The notes under the pieces were generated by a model, which searched no databases, was not told the origin of the DNA, and worked only from the letters and a program-made list of their open reading frames with translations. From the NCBI RefSeq assembly GCF_054482595.1, contig NZ_CM137008.1: a DNA stretch of 64,000 bases. One strand, given 5' to 3'. Numbering within the stretch: the stretch's first letter is position 1; each line of letters begins with the position of its first letter. Below are positions 10,582 to 23,252 of the stretch, one piece after another. Made by a program: the position numbers and the translations under genes.

Positions 10582-11712
10582 ATGACCGGACGTAAAAACA
10601 AATGCGTCAGAAAAAATTGTAACAATCAGGTTTTCTCAGTAAAAATGGCAGTGGAGAAAAGACTGTGCAGAAAACATTATGAGAGGTTTTGTGAGCTCAA
10701 AAAAAGAAGAGAGCAAAATCCTGTTCACAGATTAAATGAAGCATTGCCAAGAAAGATAAAAGGACCCAAAAGTAAGAAAAAATTAGTAAAAGAAAGAGAA
10801 ATCATTAACAGCAGGAAGAAACATAAACAGGAGCAGGGACCATCGCTGGTTGAACTTAATAAAAAAGTTCGTGAGATACTGAAAACTCCGGCATGGAGAA
10901 CGCTGGAAACGAGAATTCGAAGAAACGGTATCACATTTAAATCAAAAGCAGAGTTAGATGTACTTTCTGAACTTTATGCAATTTATTCATGGGTTTCATA
11001 TTGCAAACGGAGCGATAATTATTCTGTGTGGTTTTTGAATTGTCCGGATGTAAATATAAATCTTCATGTGTGCGAATGCAGGTCTTCTGAAAGCGATTGT
11101 TATCTACCATCCCGTTTTATTATTCTTCCAGCTCCATTAAGGCAAAAAGTAAAAAGAAAATACCCTGCTAATTCGTCTGGAGTGTCAGGATATAGTGATT
11201 CAAAAAGTCTTTATAAGACTGTTTTGTCTGTTTGTGGTGGGAAAAGAGAAACCGAATTGTTCTTTTATTCACTGCCAGTAAAGACTAATCATCATCCTTA
11301 CTGGATTAAAAGTGGTGTGGTTAAAAGATTTCCGCCTATTTTTGGCTTGTTGTTTTATGAACAGGAAAGGTTAACAGGAGGTGTTTTTCGTTATGTGTTG
11401 ATAAAGTTTTATAATGCTTTTAAGGAGAATTTGTTTTTTGTTGAGATTATCTCGTGCTGTTTTCTTGTTGAGTTTTTTCATGATATTGATTCATTTTTTA
11501 TAAATCAACGATTAAGTAAGTTGGAAATTTTTATAGATAAGTGGAGGGAGGGTAAAGAAATCTGGATAAAAGCATATCTACAACTGATACATAATGCATT
11601 GGGAATAACTGAAACAGAAAAACTCGTCAATCTATATAATTCATTTTTTACTGATAAAGTGGTTCTCTGGGATGAATCAGTAAAAAAAGTTAAGTGGATT
11701 TATGAGAAATAG
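10582..11712 (+). CDS. hypothetical protein, Cys-rich basic N-terminus, strongly AT-rich gene
   Basis: 376-aa ORF with GGA RBS-like purines upstream; N-terminal C-x5-C...C-x-K-H-x4-C cluster and K/R-rich stretch; no recognised domain; divergent from the GTPase gene. Confidence 0.5.
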   Translation: MTGRKNKCVRKNCNNQVFSVKMAVEKRLCRKHYERFCELKKRREQNPVHRLNEALPRKIKGPKSKKKLVKEREIINSRKKHKQEQGPSLVELNKKVREILKTPAWRTLETRIRRNGITFKSKAELDVLSELYAIYSWVSYCKRSDNYSVWFLNCPDVNINLHVCECRSSESDCYLPSRFIILPAPLRQKVKRKYPANSSGVSGYSDSKSLYKTVLSVCGGKRETELFFYSLPVKTNHHPYWIKSGVVKRFPPIFGLLFYEQERLTGGVFRYVLIKFYNAFKENLFFVEIISCCFLVEFFHDIDSFFINQRLSKLEIFIDKWREGKEIWIKAYLQLIHNALGITETEKLVNLYNSFFTDKVVLWDESVKKVKWIYEK

Positions 11713-12252
11713 CACCATTTAACTGAAAGCTACCATAACGTCTTTTTGATCACACGCATGATAATGCGTCTCATTTAAATTTCGTTTTTTGGGTCATGGA
11801 AATTTTCCGAACATCAGTGATAATGAGGGTTTTGTTGTTTTTGTTTCTGCAATGTTTGAGGGCTGTTCCTGGAGACGATTCGTTGCTTGTGAGCAAGTGG
11901 TGGTCCGCTTTACTGGACGAGTTTTGCATTTGTTGAGTGGTGAAATGGAAGTAAAAAGAGCCCCTTTCTGGCAATGACTGAAAAAGTCAGTAGCGTGTAA
12001 CAGTAAAAACTAACATAAAGTGATTATCGTATGATTATGACAATAACTTATAACTTTTATGAAAAGAACAACAGAAACTACGAAGCCATAACAGATTCCT
12101 GAGACCATGTTTTCTGAGGTAGAGAAAATAATTCAAGAGTAAACCAGTTTGTTTTTTGGTCAGTAAAGAACCATGCCTGATGTGAAAACGGGTAATCAAC
12201 ATTCAGTCTGCATGGATGTTTGGAAGAGTTGAGAATGTCGGTATGATACTAT

Positions 12253-12360
12253 ATACACGTATTTTTACTAAGCATTTCAGTAAGTGTTATACACGTATTT
12301 TTACTAAGCATTTCAGTAAGTGTTATACACGTATTTTCATAAACACTTCTACAAGTGTTT
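12253..12360. repeat. tandem direct repeats (2 perfect 36-bp units plus a degenerate third)
   Basis: ATACACGTATTTTTACTAAGCATTTCAGTAAGTGTT at 12253-12288 and 12289-12324, then a diverged copy beginning ATACACGTATTTTCATAAACACTT. Confidence 0.85.
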
Positions 12361-13228
12361 TCGTTAAGCATTGCTATACACATCCAGTTTAGTAAATCTT
12401 TACGTTAACTAAATCAGTTTAATGCTGCTGTAAAACCTTTCTGCTTCAGCAATCAATCTGCTATTCGATTTTACTGATGTTACGTTTAACCTTTCCTGAT
12501 ATTTCGAGTTTCGACGTTAGCATGAGAAAAGTATCTTTACGCTAAATCAACCCGAACTTTCCTGAAGTAATCTGACGTTCTTTTCGATGTGCTTACGACG
12601 ATTCTGTTAAACGACTTTCTGGATGTTTTGATAACAATCAGATTTAGGCATTAACGATTCCTGACGTTTTTCTTTTCCGTGTAAGGTCATTGTTTTCGTC
12701 ATGATGTGACTCTTCTTGCATTGCGAAAGTGTGATGAACGGTTTTGGTGTTTTGATTCAGATGAAGTTTACGTTATCGATGGTTAATCGTTTTTATGGTG
12801 CGTAGTGAAACGTAACGCTTTCAGGAAGGGAAAATCGATTCTGATGGGGATGATCGTGTAACGGCGTTATCTGTAAACAGGTTTTAAACATGTCATTCGC
12901 ATCCGTGATTAAGTTGTGTGATTAAGCTGTAGGTTTTGGCGTTGTTGTTGATTTGCATTACCAGGAAGCGTTCTGGTTGCGTTTCTGGTGTTTTGTTTGA
13001 ATGTTCTGTGGATCCTTTTCCCTTCTGACTTTTCTCGTTGTCCATGTCGTTTTTAAATCCATTCGCTGTTCTTGAGTGTTTTTACCCTGTGTGTAGGATT
13101 ATCTTTTTGTTCCGTTTCAATCACTCTTAATCAGAAAGTTGTAGCATTGCTCAATGCCGGATGCCGTAAAGTTTTACCGCGGTGATTAATGATGTGAAGT
13201 CAATCCAAATCAACGGAGATCTCTCATC

Positions 13229-13960
13229 ATGAATCAACCAATACACAATGCTTACTGGTTATCCCGTTTTGAAAGTATTCTCAACGGTGCCCTGGCGCAA
13301 CACCGTGCCGTCTCGTTAATCCGGGTGGATTTACGTTTCCCTGAGTATATGCCTGCCACCATCATGGATACCGATTTAGATTCAGCGGTGATTTCTCGTT
13401 TTTTTGCATCCCTGAAAGCAAAAATTCAGGCTTACCAGCGGAAAAAACGACGTGCCAACAAGCGTGTGCGTGCAACCACTCTGCGTTATTTCTGGTGTCG
13501 GGAGTTTGGCAAGGAAAAAGGCAGGAAACATTATCACGTGATATTACTGCTCAACAAAGATACCTGGTGCTCGCCAGGGGATTTCACCGTTCCTTCTTCG
13601 CTGGCGACGCTGATCCAACTGGCATGGTGCAGTGCTCTGCATCTTGAGCCCTGGCAGGGTAATGGACTGGTTCACTTTTCCAGGCGGACGCCTTTCCGTA
13701 AACCGACATCATCTGATGCTCGCCCTTCTTCCGATGATACGCCTGTGCCTGGTGGATGTTCTGATACCCGGAAGGATTCTGACAAAAAATCTGGTGGATC
13801 CGCTGTTCTCTGGGTCAAGCGTGGTGATGTGGAAGCGATGCAGAAAGCCATGGAGAGAGCCCGTTATCTCGTGAAGTATGAGACGAAGCAGCATGACGGT
13901 TCTGGTCAACGTAATTATGGTTGCAGTCGTGGGCTGGGGCGTCTACTGGATGGCAGGTGA
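13229..13960 (+). CDS. YagK/YfjJ-family protein (inovirus Gp2-like family of CP4 islands)
   Basis: 243 aa; MNQPIHNAYWLSRFESILNGAL...HYHVILLLNKD; paralogous to the ORF at 19172-19738. Confidence 0.7.
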   Translation: MNQPIHNAYWLSRFESILNGALAQHRAVSLIRVDLRFPEYMPATIMDTDLDSAVISRFFASLKAKIQAYQRKKRRANKRVRATTLRYFWCREFGKEKGRKHYHVILLLNKDTWCSPGDFTVPSSLATLIQLAWCSALHLEPWQGNGLVHFSRRTPFRKPTSSDARPSSDDTPVPGGCSDTRKDSDKKSGGSAVLWVKRGDVEAMQKAMERARYLVKYETKQHDGSGQRNYGCSRGLGRLLDGR

Positions 13961-14287
13961 ACCCTGTAAAACAGCATCCGATGCCTGAGTTTATGCCAAC
14001 GCCCTTAGCTCGCTTTCTGAAAAGTCGTCCTGAAGTAATGCAATGGATTGCCATCTACTTCCGTTCGTGACACATAAGTCGAAAAACCTTTGGTTGTTCT
14101 GGTTATTTGCATTTACTGCCATTCATAGAAATGAACAGATCGATTGGTAGGACTCAAATGTTATAGCGTCTCTCTTCTCATAGTCTGCTTTGTACCAGAC
14201 GCGGAATCCCCTAATGCTGGTGTACAGGTTCTGACTCATTTCCTCCCCCACTTTCATCCCGTTATACTGTGAAAAAAGGAGGTAGGC

Positions 14288-15166
14288 GTGAAACTGAAAA
14301 TGCAGGATTTGAGGCTGTTTAATATTGTGTTCGAGAGCGATCCTGGCTGGATACTGGATTTCTCTAACCGCACCTTGTCTGCTTTTTTCGATGAAGAATT
14401 GAACATTGATATTGATGATGAACGTTATCAGAAAGAGGGGACGTCAAAAGCCAAACGAGTTAGATGCTTGCTGAAACAGGTTGATCGTGAGACCGCTCTG
14501 CGGGTTCTTGGTGCGCTCTGGCAGTATAAAACGGAATCCATGCCTGAACAGGCTGAACAAAGCCGTAATGACTATCTTGCACTGATTTCCCGCTTAGAAA
14601 ACGCTGACACCGATGAAGCCAAAGGCGTTAAGCCTGTCCAGGCATGGCATGGTGTTGACTGGCATTCACTTATCGCTGAAATGAACGAGATGAAATCTCT
14701 GCCGCCACATCCACGTGGTTTTCGGTTTGAAGCCTGGCTTGCTGAACTGTTCAGTATCTTTAAGCTTGCTCCCCGTTCGTCTTTCCGAAATACAGGCGAA
14801 CAGATTGACGGAAGTTTCCGACTGAATGATGAATTTTACCTGATGGAGGCAAAGTGGCATCAGAAAAGAACGTCGGCTGCCGACCTCCATGTATTTGAAG
14901 GAAAGCTCAGTACCAAGGCAACCTGGACACGCGGTGTTTTTATCAGTTGGATGGGCTTTACGCCTGAAGGCCTGACGGCTTTTGGTAAAGGGAAGCGGGT
15001 TATCTGTGTCAGTGGTTATGATCTTTACCACTCACTGAATCATAGGATCCCTTTACCCGACCTTCTGGATGCTAAAACCCGGCACGCGGCTGAAACGGGA
15101 GAGCCCTATGCTGAGTTCGACCGACTATATGCACTGAAAGACAAACAGTTCGGCACGCTGAAATAA
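14288..15166 (+). CDS. Mrr-like (PD-(D/E)xK) restriction-endonuclease-domain protein with unrelated N-terminal domain
   Basis: GTG 14288 preceded by AGGAGG (alternative ATG 14300). C-terminal GEQIDGSF...[10 protein letters not shown]...[11 protein letters not shown] parallels the Mrr catalytic region (GDGGIDG...VQAKRW...RGVFITTSGFT) as I recall it. Confidence 0.6.
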
Positions 15167-15180
15167 CGGGTTGGGAAGCG

Positions 15181-15794
15181 ATGACCTGCTCCCCGTTGTT
15201 TCACACAGAATCGTGTACAGGGTCGAAGTTCTGGCTCAATGTGCTGACTGAACTGAAAAACCGCGGTCTGAACGATATCCTCATCACCTGTGTAGATAGC
15301 CTGAAAGGCTTTCCAGATGCCATCAACACAGTATATCCGGAGGCCAGCATCCAGTTATGCATCGTGCATATGGTGCGCAACAGCCTGCGCTTCGTGTCAT
15401 GGAAGGACTACAAAGCCGTCACTCGCGACCTGAAAGAGATTTAATCAGGCACCCACGGAAGAGACAGGCTAGCAAGCACTAGATAAGTCGGAGCTGGCAG
15501 GCTAACTGACCGAATCTTACCACGTTCTTCGCTTATCTGACGGACATTCGCAAAGTGCGCTATACGACGAATGCCATCGAGTCACTAAACAGTGTGATCC
15601 GCCATGCGATCAAAAAGCGTAAAGTGTTCCCGACAGACGACTCGGTGAAAAAAGTGGTGTGGCTGGCAATCCAGTCTGCGTCCCAGAAATGGACGGTGTC
15701 GTTGAAGGACAGGTGTATGGCAATGAGCCGCTTTATTATCGAGTTCGGTGACTGCCTGTCACTTCTGAAAAAAGGCATTTACACAGAATCCTAA
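15181..15794 (+). pseudogene. IS256-family (mutator-type) transposase, fragmented
   Basis: Two ORF pieces (15181-15444, 15555-15794) with [18 protein letters not shown] and TTNAIESLNSVIR; N-terminal part missing. Confidence 0.65.
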
Positions 15795-15914
15795 ACAGGT
15801 TCCGACATTCCCCACTCATACTAAACACCTTGTCACTTGACGCAGGGCTGAACATTTTACAACAACGGTATACCAATATGATATTGGTTTACTAAATTTT
15901 TTGGGAATCCCTCA

Positions 15915-16794
15915 GGGAATTTCTCCCTATACTTCCAGACATCTGTTATCATTTAACCCATTACTGATCCGCTGCCGCATATATACCTGCGGCGAGCGAT
16001 AACTTAGAACTATGCTGCATTGTAATGTTCGATTGCTACTGCATGGTTATGCAATGCCGTCATTAACATCTGGCTTGGGCATGAACACGATGTAGTCACG
16101 CTTTATCGTTTTCACGAAGCTCTCTGCTATTCTGTTACTCTCCGGACTCCGCACCGCCGTGTTCTTCGATTCAAGTCCCAACATCCGAGCGAACTGGCGT
16201 GTTTCATTAGCCCGGTAGCATGAACCATTATCTGTCAGCCACTCCACTGGAGACGCCGGAAGCTCGTTGCCGAAGCGGCGTTCCACCGCTCCTGGCATGA
16301 CGTCCTGTACTGTTTCACTGTTGAAGCCGCCGGTAGTGACCGCCCAGTGCATCACCCCGGCAATAAGGGAGCGTGCGCTATCCACTTTTTGCACGTCCAT
16401 ATTCAACGGCTTCTTTAATGAGTTCATTTTCCATCGTTTTGTTCCGGGCAGGCGCTGGCGTTCTTTAATCTGCCTTATGGCAGCAGCAAGTTCAGAGGCA
16501 GGAACGATCTGTTCCCCAGCAGTCACCGCAGTAAGACTTCCCTCCTGGTATTGCTTGCGCCAGAGAAGTAACTGGCTGCTACACCATGTTGCCGGGCAAC
16601 GAGGGAGACCGTCATTCCTGGTTCAAAGCTCTTCTGAACATTAGCGATCTTTTCCTGTGCAGTATGCCGTCTGAGTTTCTCCGGTCCTGAGGCATCAATC
16701 ATCTGTTTTCCAATGACCAGTCTAAAAACTAATATTAAGATTATCACTTATTTAAGTGATATTGGTTGACTGGAGATTCAGGGGGCTAGCCTAT
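15915..16794 (-). mobile_element. IS2 remnant with internal deletion (~880 bp vs 1331 bp)
   Basis: IRR-like end ...CCCTATACTTCCAGACATCTGTTATCATTTAACCC near 15915 and IRL GGAGATTCAGGGGGCTAGCCTA at 16773-16794; InsC-like N-terminus (16523-16747) and truncated InsD-like ORF (16047-16526). Confidence 0.75.
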
Positions 16795-16922
16795 CCGGGA
16801 AAGTTCACTCACTTTGAATGAAGTAAATATTAAGTATCACATTTTGTGATGTAGCCATTATTTTTATAAAAAATCACCTGATAGGATTTATCATAAGTTA
16901 ATGATAAGCAGAGTATTGATAG

Positions 16923-17363
16923 ATGAGCAAGAAGAAGTTTTCTGTTGAGAATGAAGATCTCTCTACTGTTCGTACATCACTTCTTAATTCCAACCTTGTC
17001 CGGAAGTTGATCATGGAAATGTCTGATGAAGACTTCAATCAAGTTAAGGATAACCTTGAAAAGGCCATTGAGCAGCGTAATGAGTTGAAGGATTCTTTGG
17101 CAATTATCAAAAAGTACATGGATGACGCAGGTGTAACGGCGGAAGATGTGTATCGTGAATTTGGCAAAAAATTACAGACGGGCAGAAAAAACGATTCAGG
17201 AGAGTCTAATAAGTACAGGTATGAGTATAACGGTCAAATAATGTACTGGAGTGGACAAGGTCGTCGGCCTTCTGTTATTGCAGAAGCAATAAAAGCCGGA
17301 GGTTCTCTTGATGATTTTCTTATATCTCAGGGCACATCATCATCTTGTTCTGATTATGAGTGA
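16923..17363 (+). CDS. H-NS-family nucleoid-associated protein (xenogeneic-silencer paralog)
   Basis: 146 aa; C-terminal YRYEYNGQIMYWSGQGRRPSVIAEAIKAGGSLDDFLI matches the H-NS DNA-binding domain signature; coiled-coil N-terminus. Confidence 0.85.
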   Translation: MSKKKFSVENEDLSTVRTSLLNSNLVRKLIMEMSDEDFNQVKDNLEKAIEQRNELKDSLAIIKKYMDDAGVTAEDVYREFGKKLQTGRKNDSGESNKYRYEYNGQIMYWSGQGRRPSVIAEAIKAGGSLDDFLISQGTSSSCSDYE

Positions 17364-17631
17364 TACATCTAATCGGTTGAATGTTGCTGTAATGCTCGCT
17401 TTTGATGCTTATATGGCAGCGTTACCGTTTATTGTTTTAGTTACAAATTGGTCGTCATGGACATAACCTGAAATTATAACTATCATCGGGTCTTTCAAGT
17501 TGCTTATGCATATAACGCCAGGGAGGAAAACGAGAGTTAAAAAATTGAACTGTTCTCATAGAGACTGTAATTTAAATTGTGTAATTGCCGGTTTTTGATA
17601 TGTTCACTCCAACAACGTAGACAAGTAGATT

Positions 17632-18139
17632 GTGGACGAAAAGACGCTTAAAGTCCTTGCGGCTGAACTGGCTAAAGGCCTCAAAACCGGGGCCGATCTC
17701 AATCAGTTTTCCCGTATGCTGACGAAATTAACTGTCGAAACGGCGCTTAATGCGGAACTCGGTAACGGCTGCAGATGTTCCTGCTCTGGTGTATGCTCAG
17801 CATCCTGTTTTGGTGCGGCGAAGACATGGAAGCGGCGGGAGAACCCCAGCGTATTAACCGCAAAGTTAACTTTGCACCGTTGCCCGGCAACCTCCACCTC
17901 AACTTCGCCCTAGTCGTGCTGGAGCTGGTATCCAGGCTGAGTTTCGAAGCGAACTGTTCTTTTTGACGGACGCATTTTACGTTTGGGCTGGATGTAGTAA
18001 CGCAGCATGGAACGTCCGCCCGTATAACCCATTGCCTGACCGTTCGTTCAGAGCAACCAATCTGAGTCGCAATATCGACAATGTACGCGCCCTGCTGGCG
18101 CATTTGCTTTATCATGTAAAAGTCCTCTCTGCTCAGCAT
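17632..18139. pseudogene. transposase gene fragments (IS256-family N-terminus on +, IS21-like HTH N-terminus on -)
   Basis: + strand ...KTLKVLAAELAKGLKTGADLNQFSRMLTKLTVETALNAEL...; - strand MLSREDFYMIKQMRQQGAYIVDIATQIGCSERTVRQW. Neither is full length. Confidence 0.45.
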
Positions 18140-19171
18140 GTTGATGTCATTTCTGGTGTGAGAACCTTAAGGAAACAACATGTTGGGTGGAGCGGAAAAT
18201 CCAAATGGTGACCGTCTTATTATCGCTGGCGCTGACACCTGAGCGATCACCTTTAATATGGTAGCAATTACACTGAATTACTTACAGATTCGTTATAACG
18301 AACCTCTGTACATAATTATGAAACAGATTTGTATTTACATAAAACATGGATATTTTTAATTTAGGTTTATTACTATTATTATACTCACTCCCTTTTTGAT
18401 ATAATCTCTATTGTTATTTACTTCCTGTCTTTACTCACTCTCTGTTCCTGTTTTCAGTGAAATAATAATTTATTTTAATTTTATCCATCATGAGCTGTAT
18501 TTGCTTAACAATGATTGTTTGCCTGATATGTTTTAACTATTCTGGTGAACATCAATTCTCTGTCATCACTGATTAACTGAATGCTTACGCTTTGATAAGG
18601 TATCCATGATTCCGTCATGTTTAACAGCGCAGAATAAACAATGAAATTAACAGAGTGAATTCCTGATTATGTTTGTTTCGGGTTGTATTGTTTAAGATGC
18701 AGAGTAAAAATCATGCCAGTGGTATTTTTTACTCTGGTAATGTGTGCGGTTAACGTTCATGTCCTTAAGAACAGATTGGATGAGGGCGTATAAGTTTATT
18801 GCGTTGGCCTTGTTCACGTTTTTTTAGAACCACTGAGAGCAAGTTTGTAGTTTATGATTGATTGGTCGAAATATATTTCTTAACCTTCTGGTTGTGGGTT
18901 TTTATCGCGTGTTTTGCAGTATTTCGTGATGTTTATTGATTCTGTATTTTATTCGCTCCTCGTTTATCTCATCTCTTTAGCTAATACCATCAGATAATCC
19001 ATTTATTTCTGCACAACGCTACGTGTCGTTAATAACCGACGTATCCATTCTGTTACAGCATGCCTGATAAATACCGTCTGTAAGTTATTACCGTTTTAGA
19101 TCTGATTATGAGCGAAAGCATTAATTCGTTTACAGCACTTAAAACGTCATTAACTTTCAGGAGTCATCAGC

Positions 19172-19738
19172 ATGCCTAAATCTTACACACCAAACTGGTT
19201 TTTTACCGCTTTACTTGACAATCACATCAATCAAATGATGGCACGCTATTCCTGCCTGCGGGCCTTACGCATGGATTTCTTCTACAGGAAAGATACGCCT
19301 GATTTCTTACAACCTGATCATCGCTGGCTTGAATTGCAGTTGCGTATGCTGCTGGAGCAGGTGGAACAATTTGAAAATATCGTTGGCTTCTTCTGGGTGA
19401 TTGAATGGACGGCTGATCATGGTTTTCATGCGCATGCGGTTTTCTGGATCGATCGTCAGAGGGTTAAAAAAATATATCCCTTTGCGGAGCGGATTACGGA
19501 ATGCTGGCGGTCTATTACGCATAACAGTGGTTCGGCACACCGCTGTACATATCAGCCGCATTATACATACAACATCAACATTCCTGTGCGCCACAACGAT
19601 CCTGAAAGCATCGATAATATTCGCGGTGCCCTGCATTATCTGGCGAAAGAAGAACAAAAAGACGGGCTGTGTGCCTACGGCTGCAATGAAGTTCCTGAAC
19701 GTCCTGCTGCAGGGCGTCCTCGTAAGCCTCACTTCTGA
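19172..19738 (+). CDS. YagK/YfjJ-family protein (second paralog)
   Basis: 188 aa; MPKSYTPNWFFTALLDNHINQMMARYSCLRALRMDFFYRKD...HAHAVFWIDRQ; AT-rich upstream region 18200-19170. Confidence 0.7.
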   Translation: MPKSYTPNWFFTALLDNHINQMMARYSCLRALRMDFFYRKDTPDFLQPDHRWLELQLRMLLEQVEQFENIVGFFWVIEWTADHGFHAHAVFWIDRQRVKKIYPFAERITECWRSITHNSGSAHRCTYQPHYTYNINIPVRHNDPESIDNIRGALHYLAKEEQKDGLCAYGCNEVPERPAAGRPRKPHF

Positions 19739-19985
19739 AAGTTTGAATCATGAGTTTCCTGGCCCGGAAACACTTAGTCGGTAAAAACTTACCTCGATGA
19801 TTAATGATGTGAACTGAAGTCAACGGAGATCATTCACCCTGAACCTGCATCCGGTGTTCTGTCCCTTATCTTCCCGTTCTGCTTCAGTTCTTCACTTATT
19901 CCATCAATCTCATCCGCAAGCCATAACACGTCAGCTCATTCACGGGCAGGACGCATTGTGGGCTGCGCATAACGGAACATATCTT

Positions 19986-20558
19986 ATGAATGCTATTCCT
20001 TATTTCGACTATAGCCTGGCCCCCTTCTGGCCATCTTATCAGAACAAAGTCATCGGCGTCCTTGAGCGTGCGCTGCGTGAACAGTCCTGCTCCCGGGTAC
20101 GGCGGATCCTGCTTCGTCTGCCGTGGGAACATGACAACGCCTTCAGTTGCAGAAAGACCTGGTTAGGCATGGATTTTATCGAAACCGTCAGTGCGCTGAT
20201 GAATGCAACCCCCGGACGCGACCTTTGCTGGATCCTAACCCGTCATCCTGAAAAGCCGGAATACCACGTGGTGCTGTGCGTCAGACAGGAGTATTTCGAT
20301 GGCCCTGAACTGGACCGGCTGATTCTGGATGCCTGGAGCAACGTACTGGGCTTCGCGTCACCGGGTGAAGCGGCACCGTACCAGAAACAGATAACACGGG
20401 ATGTGGTGCTGGACAGTCGTTCACCGGACTGCGAAGACATCCTCAAAGAGTTGATATGGGCGTTCAGTGATTTCGCCCGCGATCGTCGTGGTGTGCGCGA
20501 TCCGGAAGCCCGTTACCTCGCCGGTAACCCCTGGTATCCCGTAGCAGGCCAGTTCTGA
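19986..20558 (+). CDS. hypothetical island protein
   Basis: Start set at ATG 19986 (MNAIPYFDYSLAPFWPSY...); the ORF-track upstream extension has no RBS support. Confidence 0.45.
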   Translation: MNAIPYFDYSLAPFWPSYQNKVIGVLERALREQSCSRVRRILLRLPWEHDNAFSCRKTWLGMDFIETVSALMNATPGRDLCWILTRHPEKPEYHVVLCVRQEYFDGPELDRLILDAWSNVLGFASPGEAAPYQKQITRDVVLDSRSPDCEDILKELIWAFSDFARDRRGVRDPEARYLAGNPWYPVAGQF

Positions 20559-20626
20559 AAGCTCAGTTCAGCAGATTCACCCGCATTTGCCCAACATTCA
20601 TAAATCTCACAAAGGACATTCTGACC

Positions 20627-20860
20627 ATGTTGACCACAACAAGCCACGACAGCGTATTGCTGCGTGCCGACGATCCCCTGATCGACATGAACTACATCAC
20701 CAGTTTCACCGGTATGACCGATAAATGGTTTTACAAGCTGATCAGTGAAGGTCATTTCCCTAAACCCATCAAACTGGGGCGTAGCAGCCGCTGGTACAAA
20801 AGTGAAGTGGAGCAGTGGATGCAGCAGCGAATTGAGGAATCACGAGGAGCAGCAGCATGA
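20627..20860 (+). CDS. AlpA-family phage/island transcriptional regulator (HTH)
   Basis: ...ITSFTGMTDKWFYKLISEGHFPKPIKLGRSSRWYKSEVEQWM fits the AlpA pattern; alternative start at ATG 20687. Confidence 0.75.
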   Translation: MLTTTSHDSVLLRADDPLIDMNYITSFTGMTDKWFYKLISEGHFPKPIKLGRSSRWYKSEVEQWMQQRIEESRGAAA

Positions 20861-21052
20861 AACGTGTTGTAATGCCAGTACGCTGGCAATGTGCGAAATG
20901 CCGGCGCTGGTATTGTGGAAATCAGCCCTGTCCCTGGTGCTGGCGCTGACAACTCCCGCTCATCTTTCTGCTGGCACCCTCTGGCCAGCCAACTGTTTGT
21001 CATCATTTCCTGACTGATTCGTCATTCCCTTCGTCCCGCCAGTCACTGGTGT

Positions 21053-21691
21053 TTGTATCGTATCGTGCCGGTGTCGATGTGCGCTTTCCGTGTGTCTGCA
21101 CCGGCTGAACAAAATTCAACAGGGTTTGAAAAGGAACATTTCGTGCAAATAACCGAAGCATTAATTTCAGAGCCGGGAGACATCCGGCGTTTTATTCAGC
21201 AGGCGGTGGACCACTGGCCGCATTTGCTGGCATTTTACTTCACACTCCATTCGGCAGAAGGAAATATCAACGGGCAACAGATTCATGCATTCTGTACTTC
21301 CTTTTACCGACAGGTGCACGAACGTATTACTGAGCGTAATCACACGGCCAGTCCATCCTCGCCGGTGGTATTACGCTGGTTGCGGGAACAACATGGAGGA
21401 GCAACAATACGATGCCTGTTGCTGTTCAGCCAGGAGCTTTTCTGCCATCCGCGAGCCAGTGTGACAGTTGATGAAGAATGTTCGCAAGTGGTGGATTTAC
21501 TGCAACAGAGCTGGCAGGTGATAAGTGCTGGCGGACAATGCCGGGTGGAAAAGCGTTTTCAGGTCGCCCGGGGTGATACATCTGGCCAGTATGTTGCGTT
21601 AAAAACAGTCGCATTGTCTCTGGGGTTACCGGTTGTGACCGCCATTATCTATCGTCCGGTACAGCGCTGTACATTGATTACAGCTCAGTGA
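21053..21691 (+). CDS. hypothetical protein
   Basis: 212-aa ORF downstream of the AlpA-like gene; no recognisable motifs; start uncertain. Confidence 0.35.
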   Translation: MYRIVPVSMCAFRVSAPAEQNSTGFEKEHFVQITEALISEPGDIRRFIQQAVDHWPHLLAFYFTLHSAEGNINGQQIHAFCTSFYRQVHERITERNHTASPSSPVVLRWLREQHGGATIRCLLLFSQELFCHPRASVTVDEECSQVVDLLQQSWQVISAGGQCRVEKRFQVARGDTSGQYVALKTVALSLGLPVVTAIIYRPVQRCTLITAQ

Positions 21692-21709
21692 ATCAGCGCA
21701 GTTGTGCAG

Positions 21710-22055
21710 TCAACGATATTTTCTGGCTTTTCGTCGGTCATTCAGCATCATTAAACGGGTCTCTGCCTCTTTCTGTTCCTGTGGTGTCACTTCCCCGCAC
21801 GGCTGACCGTTCAGGTTGTAACGGGCGCCACCTGCTATTAACGCACGGTAATAGCGCGGAGACTGCACATAAGACGCCACTGCTGCATGTAATGTACCAG
21901 CGCCAAACGCCAGTTCTCGGATGGCGATATCCTGTATCAGGTCGTCAGGTATCCCCACTTTAAGTGGTTTTGTTTTTTTCCCGGTTGAATGACTCAGGCC
22001 AGAGTTCCACAAGACGAATAATGCGCTTACGGTTTTTGCTCTGGCGTTTTGTCAT
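21710..22055 (-). pseudogene. ProQ/FinO-domain protein gene, frameshifted in an A-run
   Basis: From ATG 22055 the frame reads MTKRQSKNRKRIIRLVELWPESFNREKNKTT-stop; the remainder (...PLKVGIPDDLIQDIAIRELAFGAG...) continues in another frame (ORF 21710-22012). The intact N-terminus is seen in the copy at 58862-59092. Confidence 0.5.
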
Positions 22056-22069
22056 GTCGCCACGGTGTT

Positions 22070-23252
22070 TGGATTTGCCCCTATATTTCCAGACACCTGT
22101 TATCACTTAACCCATTACTGGCTTGCTGCCGTAGATATTCCCGTGGCGAGCGATAACCCAGTGCACTATGCGGATGCCATTCGTTATAATGCTCGAACGC
22201 CTCTGCAAGGTTCTTTGCTGCCGTTAACCCGTCTGGTTTGGGCATGATACTGATGTAGTCACGCTTTATCGTTTTCACGAAGCTCTCTGCTATTCCGTTA
22301 CTCTCCGGACTCCGCACCGCCGTGTTCTTCGGTTCAAGTCCCAACATCCGGGCGAACTGGCGTGTTTCATTAGCCCGGTAGCATGAACCATTATCCGTCA
22401 GCCACTCCACTGGAGACGACGGAAGATCGTTGCCGAAGCGGCGTTCCACCGCTCCCAGCATGACGTCCTGTACTGTTTCACTGTTGAAGCCGCCGGTAGT
22501 CACCGCCCAGTGCAGTGCCTCACGATCACAGCAGTCCAGCGCGAACGTGACACGCAGTCTCTCTCCGTTATCACAGCAGAACTCGAACCCGTCAGAGCAC
22601 CATCGCTGATTGCTTTCTTTCACGGCCACTCTGCCTGTATGTGCCCGTTTCGATGGCGGTACAGTAGGTTTTCGCTCAAGCAACAGCGCATTCTGGCGCA
22701 TGATCCGGTAAACACGTTTGGCATTCACTAACGGTAGTCCTTCATTTAGGGACTGCCGCCTGAGTATCGCCCAGAACACGGCTTACCGGGGCTATTCCTT
22801 GTCCGAAGGTAACAAGGGCACATGCGCTATCCATTTTCGCGATTGCGCATACTCCACCACTTCTTTGAGGATCTAAACTTCCATGGTTTTTTACCCAGCA
22901 AGAGCTGTAACTCTTTTATTTGTTTTATAGCGGCAGGCAGTTCTGAGGCAGGAACGACACCCTCTCCTGAAGCAACAGCAGTGAGACTTCCTTCCAGAGA
23001 TTGTTTTTCCACTTAAACAACAGGCAGGGCTGAATACAACGCAAACGCGCCACATGTGACACCGCCATGCCAGGCTCCATTGTCTGCTGAATAATGCCAA
23101 TTTTTTCCTGAGGAGTTTTACGTTTACGAAGCTCCAGCCCCGGCAAAGTTCCAGTCATCTCAAAATTAGAACCAGTGTCAGACATATATCCAAGCCTGTC
23201 TCTTATTTTAAGATACATCCACTATCTGGCGTTTCAAGGGGCTGGTCCAGCT
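22070..23252 (-). mobile_element. IS2-like (IS3-family) element, degenerate
   Basis: IS2 IRR TGGATTTGCCCCTATATTTCCAGACACCTGTTATCACTTAACCC at 22070; InsD-like ORF 22081-22779 (...[47 protein letters not shown]...); orfA-like fragments to ~23218; degenerate IRL-like sequence near 23236-23252. Confidence 0.7.

Follow-up and report, generated by a model that had tools for sequence, protein, structure and literature searches.

A strongly conserved element upstream of two YagK/YfjJ-type genes in CP4-like Escherichia coli islands: a candidate regulatory leader

Why should one and the same non-coding sequence stand before two very different genes of a single genomic island? The question is raised by a 64,000-nt stretch of DNA (the window, to which all positions refer), in which an earlier note had described a motif of about 45 bp before two open reading frames starting at 13229 and 19986, and had proposed it to be a common operator or promoter of co-regulated island genes, possibly an AlpA-type target. 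The motif, termed here the T element, is real and strongly conserved. It appears to be a hitherto undescribed regulatory element, ordinary in kind, of an uncharacterised and very common island module, and it most likely controls the expression of two anciently duplicated, phage-Rep-like genes.

The T element and its island setting

The window matches the E. coli chromosome, with bases 12500-21500 being 100% identical to strain SM107, and it harbors a CP4-like island whose minus strand carries genes for a GTPase, a DUF932 protein, an antirestriction protein, RadC and CbtA/CbeA. The features discussed below are collected in Table 1. The gene adjoining the first copy of the element (T1), gp2-243, keeps intact HUH (HYH) and Tyr (YLVKY) motifs, and its product matches the Pfam families YagK_YfjJ_C (PF11726, 5.5e-37) and REP_ORF2-G2P (PF23343, 1.3e-9) as well as replication initiation proteins in PHROG. 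It is followed on the plus strand by genes for a Mrr-like restriction endonuclease, IS fragments and an H-NS paralogue. The second copy (T2) lies 43 nt past the stop codon of yagB188 and 154 nt before the ATG of hyp190 at 19986, and a hypothetical gene of 182 aa is located 3' of the AlpA-like HTH gene on the same strand. Both candidate regulators, the AlpA-like HTH protein and a WYL/YfjR-like regulator, are encoded on the island, as is a ProQ/FinO-family protein.

Table 1. Positions of the T element copies, associated structures and neighbouring genes in the window
Feature	Position	Strand	Remarks
Fourth GTAA-N4-TTAC dyad	12392-12403		GTAAATCTTTAC; gene-free 1.5-kb region upstream of T1
T1 (copy 1)	13163-13222	+	nhmmer E 5.6e-20
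T1 predicted hairpin	13181-13239	+	-19.4 kcal/mol; z -3.3 (plus strand) vs -2.1 (minus strand)
gp2-243	13229-13960	+	243 aa; YagK/YfjJ ("inovirus Gp2 family"), HUH/Rep-like; motifs HYHVILL and RYLVKY
T3 (decayed third copy)	19064-19118	+	upstream of yagB188; CCTGATAAATACCGTCTGTAAGTTATTACCG ... TGATTATGAGCGAAAG; dyad 19080-19091; weak
yagB188	19172-19738	+	188 aa; YagK/YfjJ domain; right end of variable cargo segment
T2 (copy 2)	19763-19836	+	nhmmer E 3.3e-20
Conserved spacer blocks	19872-19914	+	CCGTT, GCTTCAGTTC, CATCA, TCATC; complementary to T2 core
hyp190	19986-20558	+	190 aa; degenerate YagK/YfjJ paralogue; heads hyp190-alpA-h180
AlpA-like / excisionase-type HTH gene	20627-20860	+	downstream in the T2-headed unit

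Both copies described earlier are indeed present, with two boxes that are exact in each, and the length of about 45 bp turned out to be an underestimate: the element comprises around 60 nt, the similarity running further 5' through a dyad. Between the copies, similarity spans 13163-13222 and 19774-19836, and conservation among T2 orthologues begins at about 19763. From 5' to 3', the element consists of the dyad GTAA-N4-TTAC, found at 13166-13177 in T1 (within CCGTAA-AGTT-TTACCG, 13164-13179) and at 19781-19792 in T2 (within CGGTAA-AAAC-TTACCT, 19779-19794, with TCC..GGAAAC as left block); of box A, TGATTAATGATGTGAA, at 13183-13198 and 19798-19813; of a run of NNNAA pentamers; and of box B, TCAACGGAGATC, at 13210-13221 and 19820-19831. 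The pentamers read GTGAA GTCAA TCCAA ATCAA in T1 (13194-13213) and GTGAA CTGAA GTCAA in T2 (19809-19823), followed in both cases by CGGAG. The run differs between the copies by a single 5-nt unit placed between the boxes, and that is why the repeat has the two offsets 6615 and 6610. T1 ends 6 nt before the gp2-243 ATG at 13229, and its box B contains the SD sequence GGAG (13214-13217). An 18-mer with up to three mismatches occurs only twice in the 64 kb, against 0.10 expected occurrences, and none of 100 shuffled sequences contained two or more.

An ATG is conserved inside the second box, and in E. coli the mini-ORF ATG ATG TGA is found in both copies (13189-13197, 19804-19812). Other lineages (L142, L139, L149, L138) have uORFs of 2-9 codons or an in-frame extension starting exactly 30 nt upstream of the annotated start; the TGA of one of these uORFs directly abuts the yagK ATG, and T3 contains a uORF of 23 codons that overlaps the yagB188 start. 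These reading frames may reflect translational coupling or an ancestral start site. An N-terminal extension of the ORF at 19986 from CTG 19839 or GTG 19854, which would bring copy 2 into the register of copy 1, was considered and discarded, since the spacer carries indels not divisible by 3 and ATG 19986 with its SD is the conserved start.

The surroundings of the element show several further features. The segment between gp2-243 and yagB188 (14088-19100) is a variable cargo slot, absent in some other E. coli (0 kb) and exceeding 10 kb in others. In the window it contains the Mrr-like restriction endonuclease gene (14288-15166), IS256/IS3 fragments and the H-NS paralogue (around 17013-17363). 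Genes of defence type (NACHT, KAP NTPase, type I RM, TIR) lie directly 3' of yagK-alpA in other genera. Two direct repeats, one of 283 nt with 95% identity (16069-16351 and 22232-22514) and another of 85 nt with 84% (15919-16003 and 22073-22157), fall inside annotated transposase pseudogenes, one of them of the IS3 family, and look like IS remnants unrelated to the motif. Upstream of gp2-243, about 1.5 kb (11713-13228) contain no annotated gene. This stretch includes a 36-nt tandem repeat, TATACACGTATTTTTACTAAGCATTTCAGTAAGTGT, in two copies plus a degenerate third (12252-12383), together with GTAAAACCTTTC (12431) and ATGATGTGA (12701), and may serve as a complex regulatory region or resemble an origin or an iteron array; a 36-nt coordinate offset relative to SM107 upstream of 12500 would fit the gain or loss of one repeat unit.

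Distribution, constraint and duplication history

The element is widespread. Among 5,426 complete E. coli genomes, the T1 region was found in 1,872 (2,501 places) and the T2 region in 1,877 (2,504 places), with both copies being present in about 1,870 of them. A pattern scan of metagenomes yielded 120 loci with 74 T1-type and 64 T2-type matches (138 instances), apart from some ten unrelated chance matches. Metagenomic T1 always lies 41 nt before the ATG of a gp2-243 homologue, and T2 always follows a gp2-243 or a yagB188 gene, in the latter case 43-67 nt after its stop codon, and precedes hyp190. The orientation of the motif equals that of the gene in all 138 instances, none of which is a T1/T2 hybrid. 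Two layouts are observed: T1-gp2-T2-hyp190-alpA, in which 936 nt separate T1 from T2, and that of the window, T1-gp2-[cargo of 3 to more than 10 kb]-yagB188-T2-hyp190-alpA. This constancy, with two copies per island always in the same two contexts, is not that of a dispersed repeat (REP, MITE, IS end). A MITE or IS nature of the T2 spacer was likewise rejected: a copy-2 query including the spacer matched 2,504 places, no more than the 2,501 of the T1 query, and the spacer therefore does not look multicopy.

The homologous islands thus contain the motif, and the suggestion that its conservation extends beyond a ribosome-binding site was borne out, the motif being under strong purifying selection. 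To limit ascertainment bias, conservation was read from the copy not used for catching a locus, which was exact in all but two cases per copy, each with a single substitution. Across 26 unique upstream regions of hyp190, little or no variation affects the dyad, the two boxes and the pentamers, and the rest of the 150-215-nt spacer has accumulated many substitutions and indels. A 35-nt core has remained invariant while adjacent DNA has diverged to about 73% identity with indels. The element is not general to all YagK/YfjJ genes: the upstream regions of yfjJ and yagK in K-12 (CP4-57 and CP4-6) lack the core, and only a skeleton, T[TA]AC-N15-T[AG]TG, is common to other genera. This skeleton, with a background frequency of 1.4e-4 per nt, is located at -50 from the ATG of yagK homologues in Brenneria, Providencia, Morganellaceae and two further enterobacterial lineages (five lineages with 36-43% protein identity). 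E. coli T1, with its one additional pentamer, has it at -55, and it is also found in T2 and T3. Such a start-codon-locked position is what one would expect of an expression signal.

The earlier note had also envisaged that both copies might belong to a larger segmental duplication including coding sequence. As a recent event this does not hold, since DNA similarity stops at 13163/13222 and 19774/19836 and neither flanks nor coding regions are alike; as an ancient duplication of leader plus gene it does. The proteins encoded downstream of T1 and T2 are barely related by BLASTP (E 0.05), and hyp190, which has no match in Pfam, NCBIfam or PHROG, joins the YagK family by profile-profile comparison (hhalign 98%, E 2.7e-13, 15% identity). 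It displays EYH in place of HUH, with loss of the first HUH histidine, and lacks the YLxK catalytic tyrosine. Nearly all of its homologues come from E. coli, just two distant relatives of full length being seen at about 30% identity, and its structure prediction was unusable (pLDDT 43). A protein scan with gp2 found two close loci in genome contigs and one in viral contigs. In Providencia, Brenneria, Morganellaceae and other relatives the module is a plain yagK-alpA, and hyp190 therefore holds the ancestral position of yagK before alpA. The decayed copy T3 presents its sub-blocks in the same order as T1 and T2 and possesses a GTAA-N4-TTAC dyad of its own; its nhmmer E-value is 1.1 over 250 kb and about 1e-3 when only the 200 nt upstream of the paralogue are counted, and the match is meaningful only because this location had been predicted beforehand. 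Gene paralogy and T3 together indicate that the element was duplicated with its gene, and the survival of an identical core before coding sequences that have diverged to 15% identity is evidence in favour of a function.

A weak remnant of the left part of T2 (TTCCGTTCGTGACACATAAGTCGAAAAAC) is found 3' of gp2-243 at 14055-14090, which suggests that cargo was inserted into, or recombined at, an ancestral gp2-T2 intergenic region. A precise site-specific insertion of cargo at T2 was discarded, as junctions vary among islands.

Predicted hairpins, promoter signals and the dyad

Hairpins in the sense-strand transcript, more than a duplex operator, seem to be the target of at least some of the constraint. 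In T1, box A and the pentamers (13181-13206) form the 5' arm of a predicted hairpin whose 3' arm (13215-13239) comprises the SD, the CAUCAUGAAUCAACC region and the start codon (13229-13231), and this complementarity to the coding start suggests that the core would lie within the transcript. The homologue from Morganellaceae, different in sequence, has an equivalent predicted hairpin that covers the AUG (z -6.3, antisense -2.3), so that the start codon is predicted to be occluded in both. The T2 core is predicted to form a long hairpin (19796-19914) whose 3' arm consists of the conserved blocks 40-85 nt downstream (z -3.4 in the window and -2.5 and -1.9 in two other spacer types), and the few invariant blocks of the spacer are precisely those complementary to the core. 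One of them, CATCAATC, resembles the start region of T1, CATCATGAATC. The T2 hairpin ends about 70 nt before the SD of hyp190 and leaves its RBS uncovered. For every hairpin of T1, T2 and Morganellaceae, folding is better on the sense than on the antisense strand, and the stems include G-U pairs.

The comparative support for pairing is limited in the following respects. For T2, 99% of cells are paired and 11 of 16 pairs never vary; a single pair changes on both sides (CG 12, UG 12, UA 5, broken 2), which is not significant covariation, as the same occurs in 124 of 500 shuffles. Variants of T1 within E. coli are confined to one-sided, mildly destabilising changes. RNAalifold found no common structure across genera, and Brenneria, L148 and T3 gave no significant hairpin. 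The structural part of the leader model described below is accordingly graded as plausible, short of proven. Rfam 15 returned only chance-level matches within 11500-22000, none of them at the motif.

At the level of transcription, the earlier proposal of a common operator or promoter was upheld in part. The motif always lies in gene orientation before the same two transcription units, and a common cis-regulatory role is therefore the most economical explanation; a recognisable sigma-70 promoter is not part of it. No site was found on either strand of 12900-13400 and 19600-20100 when the -35 and -10 hexamers were each required to match at least 4 of 6 positions at a spacing of 16-18 nt, the -10 having A as its second and T as its sixth base. 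Manual inspection gave at best weak -10-like sequences over the dyad (TAAAGT/TAAAAA), with -35 scores of 0-3 out of 6. Sites for sigma-70, sigma-54, sigma-28, sigma-E, CRP, Fur, IHF and DnaA, compared by eye with consensus sequences, were discarded because none fits both copies.

The dyad raises the matter of AlpA. The window contains four GTAA-N4-TTAC dyads where 0.67 would be expected, and each of them falls in this region. An exact match to the T1 13-mer GTAAAGTTTTACC lies in Providencia, some 100 nt upstream of alpA; across genera only this dyad reappears, and only there, the 35-nt core being absent. Morganellaceae, Brenneria and L149 lack the dyad despite having the same AlpA-like recognition helix. 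An AlpA-type target hence stays circumstantial: the dyad near Providencia alpA speaks for it, the failure of the core to recur alongside a nearly invariant HTH speaks against it, and the idea is best described as possible but unsupported. As an observation on the protein itself, the AlpA-like HTH (TG[ML]TDKWFYKLI..FPKPIKLGRSSRW) is nearly invariant in Escherichia, Providencia, Brenneria and Morganellaceae (loci compared: L139:4724-4951, L138:4762-4968, L142:3194-3424 and that of the window), and these AlpA-like proteins, distinct from K-12 AlpA, are far more conserved than the neighbouring YagK proteins.

A proposed shared leader, competing explanations and known counterparts

The best explanation for these data is that the T element is the conserved control or leader region of YagK/YfjJ-type genes in widespread CP4-like E. 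coli islands. In its specific form, to which we assign a probability of about 0.5, the element is a shared cis-regulatory leader that combines a promoter-adjacent operator with a ribosome-site-hiding hairpin. The model is built on conservation, context, paralogy and predicted structures; where transcription starts, how expression is affected and which factor acts are inferred. The element would stand in two places because leader and gene were duplicated in tandem long ago; gp2-243 would have kept the catalytic motifs and hyp190, now heading hyp190-alpA-h180, would have lost them, a third paralogue retaining a decayed copy. In the 5' part, the dyad GTAA-N4-TTAC overlapping the weak -10-like TAAAGT/TAAAAA would constitute an operator region by the promoter. 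The invariant core (box A, pentamers, box B) would be transcribed and become the 5' arm of a long sense-strand hairpin, which in T1 would bury the SD and AUG of gp2-243 to keep translation of a potentially harmful nuclease low, and in T2 would pair with the conserved blocks that the 5' leader of hyp190-alpA carries 40-85 nt further downstream. A single sequence-specific trans-acting factor, protein or RNA, would recognise both leaders and co-regulate both units. Such a factor is postulated because the 5' arm is identical in both copies and far more constrained than its pairing partners, and because base pairing alone cannot explain 35 invariant nt identical in two leaders. Candidates are the AlpA-like protein, the YagK proteins, the YfjR/WYL regulator, the ProQ/FinO-family protein of the island, or an RNA.

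The competing explanation that comes closest, clearly less probable than the shared leader, goes back to the initial proposal: a duplex-DNA operator to whose dyad and/or boxes the AlpA-like HTH, the WYL/YfjR-like regulator or a YagK-type protein binds in both copies to switch both units, the hairpins being incidental. It draws on the enrichment of the dyad in this region, on the identical GTAAAGTTTTACC before Providencia alpA, on the near invariance of the AlpA-like recognition helix across genera and on the fact that identical cores before very different genes point to one common binding factor. Activator-dependent promoters typically lack a consensus -35, and its absence here would fit this class. 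However, Morganellaceae, Brenneria and L149 carry the same helix without dyad or core, variants of the dyad strike either arm without pattern, the 5-nt difference in length between T1 and T2 places box B on opposite helix faces relative to box A, and the better folding of the sense strand together with the G-U pairs points to a constraint on single strands. Another alternative is an origin-like element or nick site at which the HUH/Rep-like YagK protein would act. The sense-strand hairpins would then form in single-stranded DNA, and replication would be initiated and terminated at T1 and T2, on either side of gp2 and its variable cargo. This we regard as improbable. The matches of gp2-243 to Rep families (PF23343, PHROG replication initiation) and its preserved HUH and YxxKY motifs agree with it, as do the position of the element immediately upstream of a Rep-like gene, the succession of an inverted repeat and a highly conserved AT-rich box, the two direct copies that bracket a cargo segment varying from 0 to more than 10 kb, and the specificity of the hairpins for the strand with rep gene polarity. 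Nevertheless, each island has two to three copies instead of one, T1/T2 hybrids, which initiation-termination or T1xT2 recombination would leave behind, amount to 0 of 138, and the cargo junctions after gp2 fall at many different positions; moreover, in T1 and Morganellaceae the start codon region itself supplies the 3' arm of the hairpin, an arrangement that fits control of translation but would serve no purpose in an origin. The skeleton also keeps a constant distance of 25 nt to the ATG, and hyp190, adjoining T2, is devoid of catalytic residues. A more elaborate variant appears slightly less probable still: T1 and T2 would be single-strand hairpin sites recognised by a domesticated inovirus-type Rep (YagK/YfjJ) of CP4-like islands, serving as signals akin to origins or terminators on both sides of the Rep gene and the hypervariable defence cargo, which they might also mobilise or amplify, with hyp190 as an inactive paralogue acting as accessory or regulatory DNA-binding subunit.

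A relic of the ancient duplication that has no function, and whose copies stay alike through gene conversion or recent inter-island recombination, would account for the paralogy of the two downstream genes and would suit islands that are mosaic and recombine frequently. Nonetheless, RecA-dependent conversion reaches its lower limit with a tract of 35 nt, about 140 instances show no change in the core although the adjacent non-coding DNA carries indels and about 27% divergence, and the skeleton is conserved across genera at a fixed position. This conservation footprint makes a neutral relic very unlikely.

The relevance of a shared leader stems from the genes to which it is attached. YagK/YfjJ-type genes, to which no function has been assigned, occur in a large fraction of the genomic and pathogenicity islands of E. 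coli, and our literature search found nothing on the function of YagK/YfjJ or on the motif sequence. No cis feature had been defined for these genes before the T element, and its invariant 35-nt core, common to two transcription units of which one includes an AlpA-like regulator, offers a handle for finding the controlling factor. The element further delimits a variable cargo slot in which defence genes are frequent. Should it be only a translational leader, it would represent a useful annotation and no surprise.

Three kinds of known systems invite comparison. With the operators of AlpA, Vis and excisionases (P4-like elements, CP4-57) the element has in common an AlpA-family gene in the T2-headed unit and one dyad that is also found upstream of Providencia alpA. 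It differs in that K-12 CP4-57 and CP4-6 (alpA, yfjJ, yagK) lack the motif and the AlpA-like regulator is conserved in lineages without the motif core; for this AlpA subfamily no binding site is known. The ori(+) of Ff filamentous phages before gene II and the oriT before relaxase genes likewise place a conserved inverted repeat and an AT-rich box shortly before a Gp2/Rep superfamily gene, and the T hairpins are on the strand of gene polarity; the element may also resemble the f1 nick region (TTAAT..GTG). In contrast to those sites, T copies are several per element, start-codon-locked and without hybrid sites, and any nicking at them is hypothetical. The last group comprises the RBS-occluding leaders of plasmid and phage replication and transfer genes, such as the traJ leader targeted by FinP/FinO and the repA leaders of IncFII/IncB. 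The T element departs from them in that no antisense RNA gene or promoter was found, its 5' arm is reused in a second leader without RBS cover, and covariation lends no support. It resembles them in that T1 is a structured leader directly before a Rep-like gene, with SD and AUG placed in a predicted stable hairpin, in that the element is highly conserved relative to its surroundings and in that the island encodes a ProQ/FinO-family protein.
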